Shown: in pieces, positions 3,115 to 51,323 of the stretch
How the letters are laid out: the number at the start of each line of letters is the position of its first letter
How positions within the stretch are numbered: the first letter of the stretch is position 1
Program-made: the position numbers and the translations under genes
From: an uncultured Candidatus Bathyarchaeia archaeon
Lineage (GTDB): Archaea; Thermoproteota; Bathyarchaeia; Bathyarchaeales; Bathyarchaeaceae
Direction of reading: 5' to 3'
DNA length: 64,000 nucleotides
NCBI GenBank assembly: GCA_964655075.1
Contig: CAZZLD010000001.1
Coordinates: 239,682-303,681 of the forward strand
Notes under the pieces: generated by a model
Seen by the model: only the letters and a program-made list of their open reading frames with translations
Database searches by the model: none
What the model was told of the DNA's origin: nothing

Positions 3115-3932
3115 CACTCTGACTCTGAAACAGGCGAAACCTGAACAACGGCACCCACCTGAACTTTAAACCGCTTCGCGGCGCTTCTCTGATTCACAGA
3201 CAACTCGAGAAAGTCGCTGCCGCCGACTACTGCAAGAGGCGAACCGACAGGAACCTCGCCGTAGGCTGAACAAAACCTTAGTTTAATGGTCTTATCGCCT
3301 ATTTTCACTTGAAGAAGCTGCCCTTCGTGTATGCCCGACTTTTCAAGGTCTCCAGCGGAGACATTGGTGATAGCGTTGCCGAAGCCGTCAATGTAGAGGA
3401 TTTCGCCGAATAGTTTGCCGGCCTTCAGTTGCGGCTTAGCAAATTCAGGCACAGAATAATCTTGTATTTCTGGTCCAAACTCGGAAGGGGAAACGCCTTT
3501 CGCCAGATAGGCAGCAGCACAACTGAAAACGTCGCGTCCGTGGAAGGCCCGCGAGATTTTCGGAAGCATATACCTCCGATTAGTTATGTGGTAAGCGCGG
3601 CGCATTCCTTCCTTCTGGGCGGACAGCACGAGGAGACCGTTGTCGGGTCCAACGTAGAATGAGCGTTTGGTTTCGATGATTATGGGCCGTCGGCTGGTTC
3701 CAACCCCGGGATCCACAACCGCAACGTGAACTGAACCTGAGGGAAAGTGTGGAGCGGCTGAAGCGAGAACAAAAGCCCCCATGCGCACGTTAAACTTCTC
3801 GATCTCATGGCTTATGTCTACCAGGGTTGCTTCTGGACAAACGGAGAGTACCACAGCCTTCATTTCCGCCACGTACGGGTCCTTCAAGCCGAAGTCTGAG
3901 AGCAAAGTTACAACTGGCACTTCTAACAGCAC
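3111..3932 (-). CDS. SAM hydroxide adenosyltransferase / SAM hydrolase family (DUF62)
   Basis: N-terminal LLSDFGLKDPYVAEMKAV and overall DUF62-like organisation. The stop overlaps the nadM stop by 4 nt in convergent orientation. Confidence 0.75.
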   Translation of the reverse strand: MLLEVPVVTLLSDFGLKDPYVAEMKAVVLSVCPEATLVDISHEIEKFNVRMGAFVLASAAPHFPSGSVHVAVVDPGVGTSRRPIIIETKRSFYVGPDNGLLVLSAQKEGMRRAYHITNRRYMLPKISRAFHGRDVFSCAAAYLAKGVSPSEFGPEIQDYSVPEFAKPQLKAGKLFGEILYIDGFGNAITNVSAGDLEKSGIHEGQLLQVKIGDKTIKLRFCSAYGEVPVGSPLAVVGGSDFLELSVNQRSAAKRFKVQVGAVVQVSPVSESEC

Positions 3933-5448: not shown

Positions 5449-6222
5449 TCATTTCGTGCTCTGCTTGGCAGCGTCCCTAACAAATTTTGCAGCTTCAACA
5501 GGCTTCTCAGACGAAGTTATGCTCCTGCCGACAATAAGATAACGCGCCCCAGCGTCAACAGCCGCTGTAACCTCTCCGCCTTGAGCGCCGATGCCTGGCG
5601 AGTAAATGGGAACCCGATCTCCTAAGATGTTGTGAACTTGCCTTATTTTCTCAGGGTAAGTAGCGCCCACCACCGCACCATCAGCACCCCAAGACAAAGC
5701 CCGCTCAGCGAAAACAACGAACTGAGGAACTAGCTTGCCGGTTTCGGGGTCCCGCACCATCTGACCGTAGCCTTCTTCGGCGCCCTTGTGACTCATGTAA
5801 ACCAGCAGAATGACGCCGCGGTTCATTTTCTCGGCAACCTCAAACACCGGCTGCATGCCCTCAGCCCATCCTACGAAAGGATTAGCGATCAAAGCGTCAA
5901 AACCAGCTGTATAATAGTATTCGGCGATCACGCGGTTTGTGTGTCCCACATCGTTAATTTTGCAGTCCATAATAGCAAGGAGCCCAAGATCGTGGATACA
6001 GTTCACAAGTTTCTGCACGCCGTCAAACAAACCTAGCGGAAGAACCAGCTGCCGGTTTATCTTCACCGCACAAAGATACGGATGCACCCTCTCCAGCAGA
6101 TCGAGACTCTTAGACATGAGGCTTCGAGGATTTTCAGGAGAAGGGTCTAGAGCTAGGACTATGTTTGAACCCGCCTTTTCCGCAGAACGCTTCATTTTCT
6201 GTTTGAAGGACAAAGTTAGCAC
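5449..6222 (-). CDS. pyrF: Orotidine-5'-phosphate decarboxylase family protein
   Basis: LALD...VKINRQL...DCKINDVGHTN...IVGRSITSSEKP resembles the OMPdecase DxKxxD and C-terminal GR motifs. At 257 aa it is longer than typical archaeal PyrF. Confidence 0.6.
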   Translation of the reverse strand: MLTLSFKQKMKRSAEKAGSNIVLALDPSPENPRSLMSKSLDLLERVHPYLCAVKINRQLVLPLGLFDGVQKLVNCIHDLGLLAIMDCKINDVGHTNRVIAEYYYTAGFDALIANPFVGWAEGMQPVFEVAEKMNRGVILLVYMSHKGAEEGYGQMVRDPETGKLVPQFVVFAERALSWGADGAVVGATYPEKIRQVHNILGDRVPIYSPGIGAQGGEVTAAVDAGARYLIVGRSITSSEKPVEAAKFVRDAAKQSTK

Positions 6223-16996: not shown

Positions 16997-17065
16997 CTTC
17001 GCGTCAAATTTGCGCTTAATTTTAATAGTTCCCGCTCATTTGGTAACTTGGGGAGAAACCTTAGC

Positions 17066-18820
17066 GTGAAGTATGCTCTTATCGCGGACATCTACGAAAA
17101 AATTGAGGCTACCACTAAGCGATTGGAAATGACTGATCTTCTCGTCGAACTTTTCAAGCAGACCTCAAGAGGCATAATTGACAAAGTTGTTTACCTCACG
17201 CAGGGCAAGTTGTACCCAGATTTTATAGGAGTTGAGATCGGAATAGCTGAGAAACTTGCCATTCGCGCCATCGCAATTGCGGCAGGCTATTCCACTAGAG
17301 AAATTGAGGAGAATTATAAGAAGACTGGAGACCTTGGAGATACCGCGCAGAGGTTTATTGAAAAAAAGGCTCAAGTTGCTTTGTTCCGTGCACCGTTAAC
17401 CGTTGAGCACGTCTATGAAACCCTTGATAAGATGGCGAAGACGACTGGACAAGGGTCAATGGACCAAAAATTGAACCTCCTAGCAGGGCTCCTCACTAGC
17501 GCCACCGCAGTAGAAGCAAAGCATCTTATTCGGACGGTTACTGGCAAGCTGAGACTGGGAATAGGTGACATGACAGTTCTCGACGCGCTGGCGATAGCCT
17601 ATACTGAAGACAAAGAGAACCGACCTACGCTGGAACGCGCCTACAACTTATCTAGCGACCTGGGAGCCGTGGCGAAAACCATAGCGGAAAAGGGAATTGA
17701 CGGAGTGAAAAAGTTCAAGATAACCGTTGGTAAGCCTGTTCGTCCTATGCTTGCTGAAAGGTTGCCGACAGCTAAGGAAATCGTGGAGAAACTCGGCGGG
17801 AAGGGCGCGGCTGAGTATAAGCTCGACGGAGAACGCCTACAAATCCATAAACAAGGTAAACAGGTGACCCTTTTCTCCCGACGATCGGAAAACATCTCCA
17901 GCCACTACCCGGATGCCATCGGGTTAGCCCGCACCCACATCAAGGTTGATGAAGCCATTGTTGAATGCGAATGTGTAGCTGTGAACCCTAACACTGGCGA
18001 TTTGATGCCCTTTCAGGAGCTTATGCACCGCCGCAGAAAATACGGCATTAAAGAAGCCATGGAGGAATACCCGGTTTCGCTTTTCATGTTTGATGTCCTT
18101 TACGCGGGCGGAAAGGATTACACGCTTCAACCATATACGGAGCGCAGAGAGAAGCTTGAACAAATTATACTTCAAGACGACGAAGTGAAGGTTGTTCCAA
18201 ACCTCGTAACCGGCGATCTGGAAAAGCTGGAGGTCTTCTTTGAACAAGCCATCCAAGACGGATGTGAAGGGCTTCTCATAAAGGACCTAAACTCTGCATA
18301 TCGGGCGGGAAGCCGCGAGTTCAGCTGGATTAAGTGGAAGCGGGAGTACCAAAGCGAGTTAACGGATACTATAGACTTGGTCATTGTTGGGGCGTTCTAC
18401 GGTAGAGGAAGGCGAGCTGGGAAGTACGGAGCGTTCCTGTTGGCGGCTTACGATAAAGAAGCGGACATGTTTAGGACAGCATGTAAATGCGGAACCGGCT
18501 TCACAGATGAGGACTTGGAGCGTTTCCCGAAGCTCCTTGAACCCCAGAAAATATCGCATGCCCACGGCAGAGTGGACTCGAAGATCGAGGCGAATGTTTG
18601 GTTTGTGCCCAAGCTAGTCATCGAGACCATAGCGGCTGAAATAACTCTGTCGCCTATTCACACATGCGGAATGGATGCTGTAAGGGAGGGAAGCGGGTTG
18701 GCTTTAAGGTTCCCGAAGTACACGGGAAAGCTTCGGGATGATAAGGGTCCGGAGGACGCTACAACAGTTAAGGAAATTATTGAAATATACCAGAATCAGC
18801 TTAAGCACATCCAAACGTGA
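17066..18820 (+). CDS. lig: ATP-dependent DNA ligase
   Basis: Adenylation motif AEYKLDGERLQIH (KxDG); later motifs EGLLIKD and WIKWKREY. The N-terminus KYALIADIYEKIE aligns with archaeal Lig N-termini, so I prefer the GTG at 17066 to the TTG at 17048. Confidence 0.9.
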   Translation: MKYALIADIYEKIEATTKRLEMTDLLVELFKQTSRGIIDKVVYLTQGKLYPDFIGVEIGIAEKLAIRAIAIAAGYSTREIEENYKKTGDLGDTAQRFIEKKAQVALFRAPLTVEHVYETLDKMAKTTGQGSMDQKLNLLAGLLTSATAVEAKHLIRTVTGKLRLGIGDMTVLDALAIAYTEDKENRPTLERAYNLSSDLGAVAKTIAEKGIDGVKKFKITVGKPVRPMLAERLPTAKEIVEKLGGKGAAEYKLDGERLQIHKQGKQVTLFSRRSENISSHYPDAIGLARTHIKVDEAIVECECVAVNPNTGDLMPFQELMHRRRKYGIKEAMEEYPVSLFMFDVLYAGGKDYTLQPYTERREKLEQIILQDDEVKVVPNLVTGDLEKLEVFFEQAIQDGCEGLLIKDLNSAYRAGSREFSWIKWKREYQSELTDTIDLVIVGAFYGRGRRAGKYGAFLLAAYDKEADMFRTACKCGTGFTDEDLERFPKLLEPQKISHAHGRVDSKIEANVWFVPKLVIETIAAEITLSPIHTCGMDAVREGSGLALRFPKYTGKLRDDKGPEDATTVKEIIEIYQNQLKHIQT

Positions 18821-18832
18821 ATTCAGTTACCG

Positions 18833-18869
18833 TTTTTTCTTGGCAAACGTTAAGCGCTAACATTTTTTT
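18833..18869 (+). terminator. Oligo-T terminator candidates downstream of lig
   Basis: A T6 run at 18833-18838 and a T7 run at 18863-18869 follow the lig stop. Archaeal termination uses oligo-T tracts. Confidence 0.4.
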
Positions 18870-18927
18870 GGAACATGCCTGATTTTAGAGAACACCTAAC
18901 AATAGATGCTTTGGATAGTAAAGCTTA

Positions 18928-18946
18928 TATAACGCCGTTATAATAT
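18928..18946. repeat. Palindromic 15-mer TATAACGCCGTTATA (+ATAT), copy 1
   Basis: Read directly: tataacgccgttataatat. Copy 2 at 19321-19339 differs only at the central base, which makes the two cores exact reverse complements. Confidence 0.9.
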
Positions 18947-18953
18947 TGTATTT

Positions 18954-19100
18954 GGCGCATGCTGTCAAGGAATACGACCAATTCTCTGTTTTGTAGGGCC
19001 TTTCGATCTTTTCAAGGCGGAAGGCATGCGCCCTCCGACCGCTAGTGTTGTTTTAGTTTAACTGTCTCATAGATAAGCCGAAAGCAGACATAATGTTTTT
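18954..19100 (+). ncRNA. Candidate small structured RNA 1
   Basis: The TATA-like ttatataa at 18925-18932 is centred about 26 nt upstream of G18954. GGCGCAUGC (18954-18962) pairs perfectly with GCAUGCGCC (19024-19032). A T5 run lies at 19096-19100. No known family recognised. Confidence 0.25.
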
Positions 19101-19125
19101 AAACTGTTAAACACATTCTTATGCT

Positions 19126-19320
19126 CGCATGTGGGTGGGCGAGCAGTTCTCGGTCCCTTATAGCCTTTCTCCTTCCCGGTCCCCAGGCTCGCTCACTTAC
19201 GCCCCCTAAAATACGACTCTCATACATAATTTCAGTGTGGGAACAGCGCTTGAGGAGAAAGGAGAAGGGCTTTGGGAGATTGTTATGGGTTCTTCAACAG
19301 CGCAAGTTCCCAACGCTTTC
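19126..19320 (+). ncRNA. Candidate structured RNA 2 (two hairpins with loop-to-stem complementarity)
   Basis: A 14-bp helix 19131-19144/19187-19200 contains three G.U pairs. A second helix is 19238-19250/19299-19312, with an inner helix 19264-19272/19287-19295 that contains four G.U pairs. The pyrimidine loop 19164-19174 is complementary to 19252-19262 (11 bp). The G.U pairs work only for a plus-strand transcript. Confidence 0.3.
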
Positions 19321-19339
19321 TATAACGGCGTTATAATAT
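19321..19339. repeat. Palindromic 15-mer TATAACGGCGTTATA (+ATAT), copy 2
   Basis: Read directly: tataacggcgttataatat. Confidence 0.9.
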
Positions 19340-19409
19340 AAACCTTTCTGCCTTAAACCTCTGAACGGAGGTTCATATGTGAAAAGGAAAAATAGCGCGT
19401 TTAAATGGT

Positions 19410-19673
19410 TTAGTGGCGGTAATTGTGAATGAAGGGGAGATCCTTGGCGTTGTTTAAGGAGCGTTTGTCGGTGGGTTTTATGGAGAGGACTTTGCCGCAG
19501 AGCCTGCACATGGAAACTAAAACGGGTTCTTTGCTTCGAACGTCGAAAACCTCAAACTGAACAACATCATGCAGGCACATAGTAATAGATTGTTTGCTGA
19601 AATAGAAAACCATTATGAACTCCGAATATAGATTGAAAATCCAACGGCTAAATGAAGTATGCCTGTGGGTCAC
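19410..19673 (-). CDS. Hypothetical small protein (orphan; start uncertain)
   Basis: Its GTG start overlaps the upstream stop (GTGA). An internal Met gives MCLHDVVQFEVFDVRSKEPVLVSMCRLCGK..., with C-x-H ... C-x2-C as possible zinc ligands. Confidence 0.25.
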   Translation of the reverse strand: MTHRHTSFSRWIFNLYSEFIMVFYFSKQSITMCLHDVVQFEVFDVRSKEPVLVSMCRLCGKVLSIKPTDKRSLNNAKDLPFIHNYRH

Positions 19674-19975
19674 ACCTGGATTAAAGGATAGTAATTCTCT
19701 AGACTTTTTCTAACCTTTCTTTTTTTGTAGCGCCCCGACTTTACGTTTTCTTTTTCTGGTGGAAGCGCAAAATCCTTTTCAAGAATTTCGTCAGCGTCAA
19801 AACCAACACTGTCAATTATGAATTTCGGTTGGGGAATCATGGATGGACTGTACCAAAATTGAAGCTGCACGCCGTGTTTTTTGCAGAGGGCCTCCACGTC
19901 CCCCTCGAAACTACTGTAAAGTTTGATAAGCTCTTCTTGAAATGCCAGAAAATTGTCCCTGTGAACGCGAGCCAT
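19670..19975 (-). CDS. Hypothetical protein (orphan)
   Basis: 101-aa ORF with protein-like composition and a basic tail (GRYKKRKVRK). No motif recognised. Confidence 0.4.
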   Translation of the reverse strand: MARVHRDNFLAFQEELIKLYSSFEGDVEALCKKHGVQLQFWYSPSMIPQPKFIIDSVGFDADEILEKDFALPPEKENVKSGRYKKRKVRKSLENYYPLIQV

Positions 19976-51230: not shown

Positions 51231-51323
51231 TGGCGGGCCCGCGGGGATTTGAACCCCGGATCTCCGACTTTCTTCGCGTCTCCGTAGAAGGCCGGTGCCT
51301 TGTCCTAACTTGGCCACGGGCCC
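51231..51323 (-). tRNA. tRNA-Arg (anticodon UCU) with a 15-nt canonical 37/38 intron; CCA encoded
   Basis: The reverse complement is GGGCCCG UG GCCA AGUUAGGACA AGGC A CCGGC CUUCUA[cggagacgcgaagaa]A GUCGG AGAUC CGGGG UUCAAAU CCCCG CGGGCCC G CCA. CUUC pairs with GAAG of the intron, flanked by two 3-nt bulges that carry the splice sites (bulge-helix-bulge). Confidence 0.85.
51270..51284 (-). other. tRNA intron (canonical position 37/38)
   Basis: See the tRNA-Arg(UCU) fold. A 4-bp central helix lies between 3-nt bulges UAC and AAA. Confidence 0.7.

Follow-up and report, generated by a model that had tools for sequence, protein, structure and literature searches.

A conserved non-coding intergenic element beside the DNA ligase gene in a narrow group of uncultured Bathyarchaeia

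Positions 19126-19320 of the window, by which we mean the whole 64-kb stretch of DNA that was analyzed, form the right-hand (3′) half of a single-copy, non-coding intergenic element of about 400 bases that spans 18925-19339 and is selectively conserved. The element resides beside a DNA ligase gene and is confined to a narrow clade of uncultured Bathyarchaeia. Judged by comparison of related sequences, it probably encodes one or two small structured RNAs. An earlier reading of the window, made from its sequence only, had proposed 19126-19320 as a candidate plus-strand double-hairpin RNA that might form a pseudoknot. In support of this proposal, the region is non-coding and conserved, its helices persist among relatives, and it belongs to no Rfam family. 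The proposed fold itself was less fortunate: none of its 46 listed base pairs exhibits a compensatory change, and a pair of the pseudoknot is lost.

Extent and distribution of the conserved unit

The window derives from a Bathyarchaeia archaeon. Its ATP-dependent DNA ligase (17048-18820) is at most 68% identical to the ligases of species representatives, all of which are Bathyarchaeia or Thermoproteota MAGs. Neighboring genes code for housekeeping and carbohydrate functions, including an amino-acid permease, triosephosphate isomerase (TIM), an ARMT1-like phosphatase, a glycogen debranching enzyme, and a sugar nucleotidyltransferase/phosphomutase. The stretch originally described is located inside an 850-nt gap between the ligase stop codon (18820, plus strand) and an ORF of 101 aa (19670-19975, minus strand).

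Relatives, designated here by L numbers, were gathered by using as queries the ligase and the MFS transporter encoded next to the element in relatives. A full-length element is found at the same locus in four lineages, namely the window, L052 (whose sequence is identical to those of L051, L099, and L100), L098, and L110. The ligases of L052, L098, and L110 are ∼90%-92% identical to that of the window. The 101-aa ORF to the right of the gap is conserved and unannotated. A smaller minus-strand ORF (19410-19580, core MCLHDVVQFEVFDVRSKEPVLVSMCRLCGKVLSIKPTDKRSLNNAKDLPF) is conserved at the amino acid level in L052 and is called as a gene of 56-71 aa in L098 and L099, with no Pfam match.

Alignment of the four lineages reveals that the conserved unit starts at 18925, rather than at 19126, and ends at 19339. 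Between the ligase and the element (18851-18924), only 0%-15% of the columns are invariant and indels are numerous, whereas from 18925 on the invariant fraction is 60%-95%, with 95% in the left of two 22-nt repeats that bound the unit. This left repeat is 95%-100% identical across six lineages, and conservation begins abruptly there. Invariant columns fall to 25%-30% in two internal spacers, one of them at about 19202-19240, and pairwise identity across the spacers at 19114-19130 and 19202-19240 is 47%-69%. The block at 19131-19205 retains 89%-93% identity between lineages, compared with 75%-81% at the four-fold degenerate sites of the ligase gene. Because the element overall evolves at 0.4-1.0 times the third-codon-position rate, only some of its blocks can be strongly constrained. 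The features of the locus are as follows.

18925-18946, plus strand: first of the two 22-nt repeats, TTATATAACGCCGTTATAATAT, recorded as repeat family D2 and as inverted repeat I1, with dyad core TATAACG-N-CGTTATA and two TATA-like boxes
18954-19032, plus strand: hairpin 1, a 10-bp stem of GGCGCAUGCU (18954-18963) with GGCAUGCGCC (19023-19032) around a variable interior of ∼59 nt
18961-18973, plus strand: 5′ arm of a 13-bp long-range helix with 19289-19301; a perfect 13 bp (one G.U) in L098
19056-19061, plus strand: 5′ arm of a short A/U helix, GUUUAA with UUAAAC at 19099-19104; in L110, U19059-A19101 becomes A-U, a compensatory change
19096-19113, plus strand: conserved A/T-rich block that includes “tttttaaac”, 89%-94% identity
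19114-19130, plus strand: variable spacer between the A/T-rich block and the next conserved block, 47%-65% identity, 3-nt indel
19131-19200, plus strand: hairpin A, with arms invariant in three lineages and a loop that holds two TTCYCGGTCCC copies and the tract CCUUUCUCCUUCCC
19149-19175, plus strand: 5′ strand of a pyrimidine/purine helix with 19257-19283; core 19162-19174/19259-19271, 13 bp
19206-19237, plus strand: variable spacer with indels, 52%-69% identity, 25%-30% invariant columns
19238-19312, plus strand: hairpin B, outer helix 19238-19250/19299-19312 and inner helix 19264-19272/19287-19295, both kept; contains the purine tract GAGGAGAAAGGAGAAGGGC
19318-19339, plus strand: right copy of the 22-nt repeat, ∼180 nt upstream of the MFS transporter gene in relatives
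19366-19385, no strand: deletion junction, where ∼1.43 kb including the MFS transporter gene is missing by comparison with L052

A shorter form of the element occurs in L056/L055 and in L103-L105, whose ligases are 82% identical to that of the window. These lineages carry the left end only, comprising the repeat and a hairpin, beyond which lie T-runs and a KaiC-like gene in convergent orientation; hairpin 1 and the left repeat are thus the sole parts of the element that they have as well. The short elements are located just 3′ of the ligase gene (716-870 in L056, 4791-4940 in L103), where the 22-nt repeat is joined to a GGCGCAUGCC...GGCAUGCGCC hairpin. They also keep the 5′ loop segment GCCAGCGAAGGAC, though its long-range partner is absent nearby.

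The full element is absent from the ligase locus of the other relatives with 75%-85% ligase identity (L101, L102, L053, L054, and L106-L109), as well as from the vicinity of MFS homologs of 60%-63% identity. Neither the window nor ∼765 kb of related DNA contains a second copy, and a covariance model of hairpin 1 applied to 674 kb recovered the six known lineages and no new members. A weak match to this model in L003 was rejected as an unrelated long palindrome. In that distant Bathyarchaeia MAG, whose ligase is 65% identical, a very long and near-perfect inverted repeat (3350-3490) lies directly 3′ of the ligase gene. Viral contigs scanned by exact pattern for three conserved motifs and for ligase relatives yielded nothing relevant; the single exact-pattern match, in L097, was dismissed as a chance occurrence in an AT-rich phage.

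The earlier claim that no convincing ORF covers 19126-19320 needs amendment, because an ATG-started ORF of 71 aa (19121-19336, plus strand) spans the stretch, but the region is non-coding nonetheless. The reading frame is broken by shifts or stops in all three relatives, so the ORF is not coding, and L052, L098, and L110 instead have ORFs in other frames and of other lengths. Moreover, 1-nt indels sit inside conserved blocks of the element, and the 71-aa product has no Pfam match. On these grounds a protein-coding gene or small ORF was rejected.

The element also lacks a counterpart among known RNA families. At gathering thresholds, an Rfam 15 scan of the whole window identified only a tRNA at 51234-51323. 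When matches with E values up to 10 were accepted for 18800-19720, only a chance match to mir-2238 was obtained (16 bits vs. 52), and the homologous regions of L052, L098, L110, L056, and L103 gave nothing at E values up to 5. Together with a search for box motifs, these scans bear out the initial failure to match the stretch to RNase P, SRP, C/D, or H/ACA RNAs. The tRNA gene itself (51231-51323, minus strand) is 90-93 nt long, encodes its CCA, and scores 54 bits in Rfam. ARAGORN gives it a four-base “anticodon” (ctac) and no identity, and it probably carries an intron or other non-canonical feature.

RNase P RNA and SRP (7S) RNA resemble the element in size (∼360 nt) and in the possible helix that joins its ends. 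However, both are universal, whereas the element is limited to a few close lineages and is absent at this locus in relatives whose ligase is 82%-83% identical. The corresponding models (RF00373, RF02357, and RF01857) produced no match at E values up to 10, and the element is lacking 3′ of the ligase gene in the eight relatives named above. Resemblances to RNase P CR-I/CR-V and, on the minus strand, to SRP helix 8 were noted by eye and rejected, given that they receive no covariance-model score and that the element is not universal.

C/D box sRNAs have a C box (RUGAUGA) near their 5′ end and a D box (CUGA) near their 3′ end. This class was rejected because, within 18940-19345, neither strand contains RTGATGA or TGATG and the plus strand contains no CTGA. 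In H/ACA sRNAs, ACA comes after a hairpin that has a K-turn in its upper stem and an internal pseudouridylation pocket. What comes after the lower stem of hairpin B is instead ACG (window) or AUA (relatives), there is no match to an Rfam snoRNA model, and this assignment was likewise rejected. The internal loop of hairpin B is very asymmetric, with 13 nt facing 3 nt. A survey of the literature on Bathyarchaeota non-coding RNA found nothing relevant.

Helices, competing pairings and strand

Every helix listed in the sequence-only reading is present in the sequence. Hairpin A pairs 19131-19144 with 19187-19200 through 14 bp, three of them G.U, and can be extended to 15 bp by U19130.G19201. Its loop of 42 nt is pyrimidine-rich as described (31 of 42). 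Hairpin B consists of 19238-19244/19306-19312 and 19246-19250/19299-19303, surmounted by an inner helix (19264-19272/19287-19295) with four G.U pairs. When 19126-19320 was shuffled 300 times with dinucleotides preserved, helices of 13 bp or more without interruption arose in 14 cases and of 15 bp or more in only one, which means that hairpin A is longer than expected by chance. The 11-bp match between the loop of A and the base of B (19164-19174/19252-19262) is equally real but unremarkable, since helices of at least 11 bp appear in 95 of 300 shuffles. The pseudoknot, or loop-to-stem pairing, that this match was thought to permit is not supported, as its pair C19171-G19255 is C.A in all three relatives.

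Nor does the plus strand fold strikingly well, as had been claimed. Its minimum free energy (MFE) is −61.4 kcal/mol, compared with a shuffle mean of −58.6 ± 4.4 (z = −0.64), and the minus strand reaches −58.1 kcal/mol, compared with −56.5 (z = −0.40). The purine and pyrimidine tracts explain why shuffled versions fold nearly as well as the natural sequence.

Alignment of homologous regions, suggested at the outset as a check, gave a divided answer. The segment is syntenic in three further lineages and its substitutions and indels avoid the helix arms, but compensatory changes are missing from all of the listed pairs. The two-hairpin model keeps 96.7% of its pair cells in the four lineages, and the changes that do occur are one-sided. 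In L110, hairpin A gains a C.A mismatch (U19136 to C) while one of its G.U pairs becomes G-C, and hairpin B has one mismatch in each of its helices (outer, A.C; inner, C.A).

Two internal repetitions were also observed. The TTCYCGGTCCC copies in the loop of hairpin A (19147-19157 and 19173-19183) are 26 nt apart and both are conserved in relatives; they could represent a repeated protein-binding or pairing motif. In addition, the interior of hairpin 1 (18975-19004) and the start of the hairpin A loop (19140-19169) share a direct similarity of 70% over 30 nt, which hints at a tandem duplication. A tandem-paralog relation between the two hairpins was rejected because the similarity is weaker, and not kept, in L110.

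Alternative pairings that are mutually exclusive are conserved at least as well as the two-hairpin model, and they hold the only compensatory changes seen. The long-range helix between 18961-18973 and 19289-19301 includes two compensatory pairs (18963/19299, U-A vs. C-G; 18965/19297, U-A, U.G, or C-G), four one-sided wobble changes, and a tandem C.A/A.C mismatch in the window and L110. The pyrimidine/purine helix appears in the window's MFE fold as well as in both consensus folds, shows one compensatory change in L110 (A-U to C-G), and is incompatible with the inner helix of hairpin B. In all, segment 19289-19301 has three competing candidate partners. The stem of hairpin 1 has experienced two substitutions, both of which create G.U pairs on the plus strand (U18963 in the window and G at 19026 in L098). 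Hairpin 1 was also considered as a K-turn (stem, 3-nt bulge, GA), but this was rejected, since L103 alone conforms to the pattern and the window and L056 do not.

Two consensus folds were scored for covariation. A rod-like fold of 19127-19307 pairs 19127-19144 with 19289-19307, 19150-19174 with 19259-19283, and 19184-19196 with 19237-19252, and it turns the U19136-to-C change of L110 into a C-G pair. With four sequences whose full-length lineages fall within about 90% ligase identity, and with mutually exclusive consensus structures derived from the same alignment that was used for scoring, such scores have little power. In the rod model, three of 50 pairs are compensatory and the covariation score is 0.117, against 0.083 for shuffled versions, 15 of 500 of which attain the model's value. 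A global consensus of 18951-19316 has five compensatory pairs among 93, with a score reached by six of 500 shuffles and 0-3 compensatory pairs in slid controls; such changes are few, yet more numerous than in the controls.

Consensus energies were compared with a null in which the reference was shuffled with dinucleotides preserved and the observed substitutions were re-applied at the same positions. For 19126-19320, z is −3.3 on the plus strand and −2.7 on the minus strand, and for 18951-19316 it is −4.0 on both. Values below this null imply that substitutions avoid helices more than chance allows, and variable positions cluster in predicted loops. For the left portion (18951-19055), the alifold z is −3.3 on the minus strand versus −0.5 on the plus strand. 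No sequence that the pyrimidine or purine tract might target in trans was found in the window.

The choice of strand had been argued from G.U pairs, which become mismatches in the opposite strand. An unbiased search for helices tolerating either G.U or A.C gave plus-strand G.U:A.C counts of 22:10 in the window (composition-expected ratio 1.22), 29:11 in L052 (1.20), and 20:9 in L098 (1.30). G.U thus exceeds A.C by ∼2-2.6 to 1 in three lineages, compared with 1.2-1.3 expected, but the preference that the argument relies on is reversed in L110 (12:20, expected 0.79). The long-range helix forms equally well from either strand. Overall, these pair counts weakly favor the plus strand.

Flanking repeats and the transporter gene

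Each copy of the 22-nt repeat carries the dyad TATAACG-N-CGTTATA and then ATAT, and there are just two copies in 64 kb, compared with 0.08 expected. In the right repeat, the seventh dyad pair around the single central base is G/C in the window and A/T in L052, L098, and L110. An RNA hairpin cannot have a loop of 1 nt, so this co-variation indicates a DNA dyad, suitable as a site for a dimeric protein that overlaps the TATA-like boxes, rather than an RNA hairpin. From its sequence the left repeat would be a promoter plus operator, and the right repeat a putative promoter and operator of the MFS transporter gene. The two copies share a direct, not just palindromic, extension (...GTTATAATAT) that points rightward.

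Putative transcription starts were placed ∼32 nt from the first base of a TATA-like box, a spacing rule checked on the window's TIM gene and tRNA 5′ leader. The box of the TIM gene starts 32 nt before the start codon, and a similar box precedes the 5′ end of the tRNA by a few bases more than the rule specifies. The left-repeat box, which in relatives reads TTTATATA and starts at 18923, predicts a start near 18955, the first base of the invariant GGCGCAUGC.

The “tttttaaac” at 19096-19104, singled out in the sequence-only reading as TATA-like, is indeed present and conserved as part of the A/T-rich block. Here the rule predicts a start near 19128, and the box is followed by a variable spacer of ∼17 nt and then by an invariant block from 19131, the arrangement one would expect where a promoter precedes a transcript start. 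The block at 19096-19113 is a candidate internal TATA box on this evidence. It could also act as a terminator for an upstream unit, because it holds the element's sole plus-strand run of five or more T residues. Past 19316 there is no consistent T-run that might serve as a terminator, and runs of at least four T residues are absent from the plus strand at 19101-19345. T4-T5 runs are present in the 5′ part of the element on the plus strand, and its minus strand has one T4 run only.

In L052, L098, and L110, the MFS gene is located directly downstream from the element in the same orientation, and the interval from the right repeat to the MFS start is conserved (55%-90% invariant columns). The window has lost this gene through a clean deletion. 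Its positions 19300-19365 correspond to 4236-4302 of L052 and its positions 19386-19700 to 5735-6050, such that L052 4303-5734 is missing. The last ∼10 nt of the MFS gene, GGAAAAATAG, are left behind.

Lineage-specific substitutions in the element number 18 in the window, nine in L052, 13 in L098, and 40 in L110; the respective figures for third positions of the ligase gene are 57, 35, 25, and 67. In the window lineage the element therefore shows no faster substitution or relaxation despite the loss of the MFS gene. Hairpin 1 is likewise present in L056 and L103 with no MFS gene beside it. These two observations favor an independent function over that of a pure leader, with the proviso that the deletion could be recent.

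Possible identities of the element

As a tentative best explanation, the element may produce one or two small RNAs from the plus strand, driven by archaeal-type promoters whose operator is common to the MFS gene that is deleted here. Transcription would proceed from promoters of the BRE/TATA type. In one layout, a single RNA of ∼360 nt would be closed by a helix between its ends. Two units are the likelier arrangement, of which the first would contain hairpin 1 and run from ∼18955 to a T-run at 19051 or 19096 (∼100-145 nt), and the second would be the RNA originally described, from ∼19128 to ∼19316 (∼190 nt). The flanking repeats would be two copies of one promoter-plus-operator, each with a dyad site for a dimeric regulator, which would place the non-coding unit and the neighboring MFS gene under common control. 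The RNA might act via two invariant single-stranded tracts, one of pyrimidines (CCUUUCUCCUUCCC) and one of purines (GGAGAAGGG), which could pair either mutually or with further blocks, each such pairing excluding the others.

Four competing explanations were considered. The entire region from the left repeat to the MFS start could be one long structured 5′ region, resembling a riboswitch or attenuator, that serves as a cis-regulatory leader or upstream control region of the MFS gene and was orphaned by a recent deletion in the window. The co-oriented gene directly downstream in three relatives, conservation that continues from the right repeat to its start, several mutually exclusive pairings of the same blocks, and the lack of T4 or longer runs on the plus strand between 19101 and 19345 all fit this arrangement. 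We nevertheless consider it rather unlikely, given that a second promoter-like repeat separates element from gene, T4-T5 runs in the 5′ part would terminate a long leader, and no riboswitch family in Rfam matches. In addition, MFS homologs (60%-63% identity) exist in another context without the element, the window has lost the gene without acceleration of the element, and hairpin 1 and its promoter exist without any MFS gene in L056 and L103. Riboswitch-like leaders resemble the element as conserved structured sequences upstream of a transporter with alternative pairings, but they differ in that the element has no family match, is separated from the gene by a promoter-like repeat, and persists when the gene is gone.

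Improbable to a greater degree is a region that functions only as DNA, in which transcription-factor sites and promoters of the flanking genes, with inverted repeats as dyad operators, would account for conservation and no functional RNA would be made. The flanking repeat does appear to be a DNA dyad, as its seventh pair co-varies around a 1-nt center, and neither the long-range helix nor the alignment fold scores distinguish the two strands; the plus-strand A.C mismatches of L110 also agree. Yet archaeal promoters and operators usually occupy far less than ∼300 nt, and the conserved sequence here extends over about that length and includes a 75-nt block at 89%-93% identity. Furthermore, variable positions concentrate in predicted loops, and the three G.U pairs of hairpin A would be mismatches in DNA. 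We regard as still more doubtful a functional transcript of the minus strand that would start at the right repeat, where the dyad also offers a leftward TATA-like box, and run antisense to the RNA originally described. It gains from the alifold z for 18951-19055 (about equal on the two strands for the whole element), from the A.C mismatches of L110, which would become G.U, and from the single T4 run on that strand. It would burden hairpin A with three A.C mismatches in three lineages, however, and it conflicts with the G.U excess on the plus strand in three of four lineages and with the rightward direction of the extension shared by the repeats.

Very improbable, finally, is a functionless relic of a small MITE-like mobile element or of a local duplication. 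MITEs are comparable in their length of ∼400 bp, their repeated ends, and their internal inverted complementarity, and here the terminal 15-nt motifs are perfectly complementary, complementarity is also found in inverted subterminal sequences, and genes have been gained and lost at the locus. The element differs in being single-copy (none elsewhere in the 64-kb window or the ∼765 kb of related DNA), in holding the same position in four lineages, in being under purifying selection and clearly more conserved than adjacent intergenic DNA, and in having ends that are direct repeats of a palindrome rather than true terminal inverted repeats. On these grounds a transposon origin was rejected. Moreover, the short-element lineages keep the left end and hairpin 1, and hence do not represent an empty site.

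One or two small plus-strand RNAs, our preferred explanation, would have precedents in Archaea. Intergenic small non-coding RNAs have been cataloged by RNA-seq in Sulfolobus, Haloferax, Methanosarcina, and Thermococcus. The element is like them in being intergenic, non-coding, and within 100-400 nt, in carrying a BRE/TATA-like box at the usual distance, in its conservation among close relatives only, and in its stem-loops with conserved single-stranded tracts. It differs from those RNAs in that it comes to us as sequence and has no named family.

A parallel for the putative operator is provided by the Thermococcales glycolytic motif TATCAC-N5-GTGATA, a dyad operator-promoter bound by regulators of the TrmB family. 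Like these sugar-regulon operators, the 22-nt repeat is an A/T-rich palindrome over TATA-like boxes, is present in two copies of which one is upstream of a transporter gene, and lies in a neighborhood with carbohydrate genes (TIM, glycogen debranching enzyme, and sugar-nucleotide enzymes). The repeat reads TATAAC-N3-GTTATA, however, which is another sequence with another spacing, and has only two copies in 64 kb; the likeness is a lead only.

A bolder version of the RNA proposal, which we rate as unlikely, posits a new clade-specific structured RNA of ∼360 nt that would share its operator-promoter with the transporter gene. Its conserved blocks, some G-rich and others rich in pyrimidines, would alternate among mutually exclusive folds, namely the two hairpins, the rod, and a form closed by pairing of its ends. 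If true, an uncultured archaeal phylum would possess a new family of RNA switch or regulatory RNA.

At present the element is a narrow-range candidate, and its value is that of a lead, not a discovery. Bathyarchaeia are abundant, uncultured archaea of sediments, and to our knowledge almost nothing has been established about their regulatory RNAs. A conserved, promoter-equipped non-coding element whose operator is shared with a transporter gene would be an entry point to regulation in Bathyarchaeia and the seed of a new RNA family.
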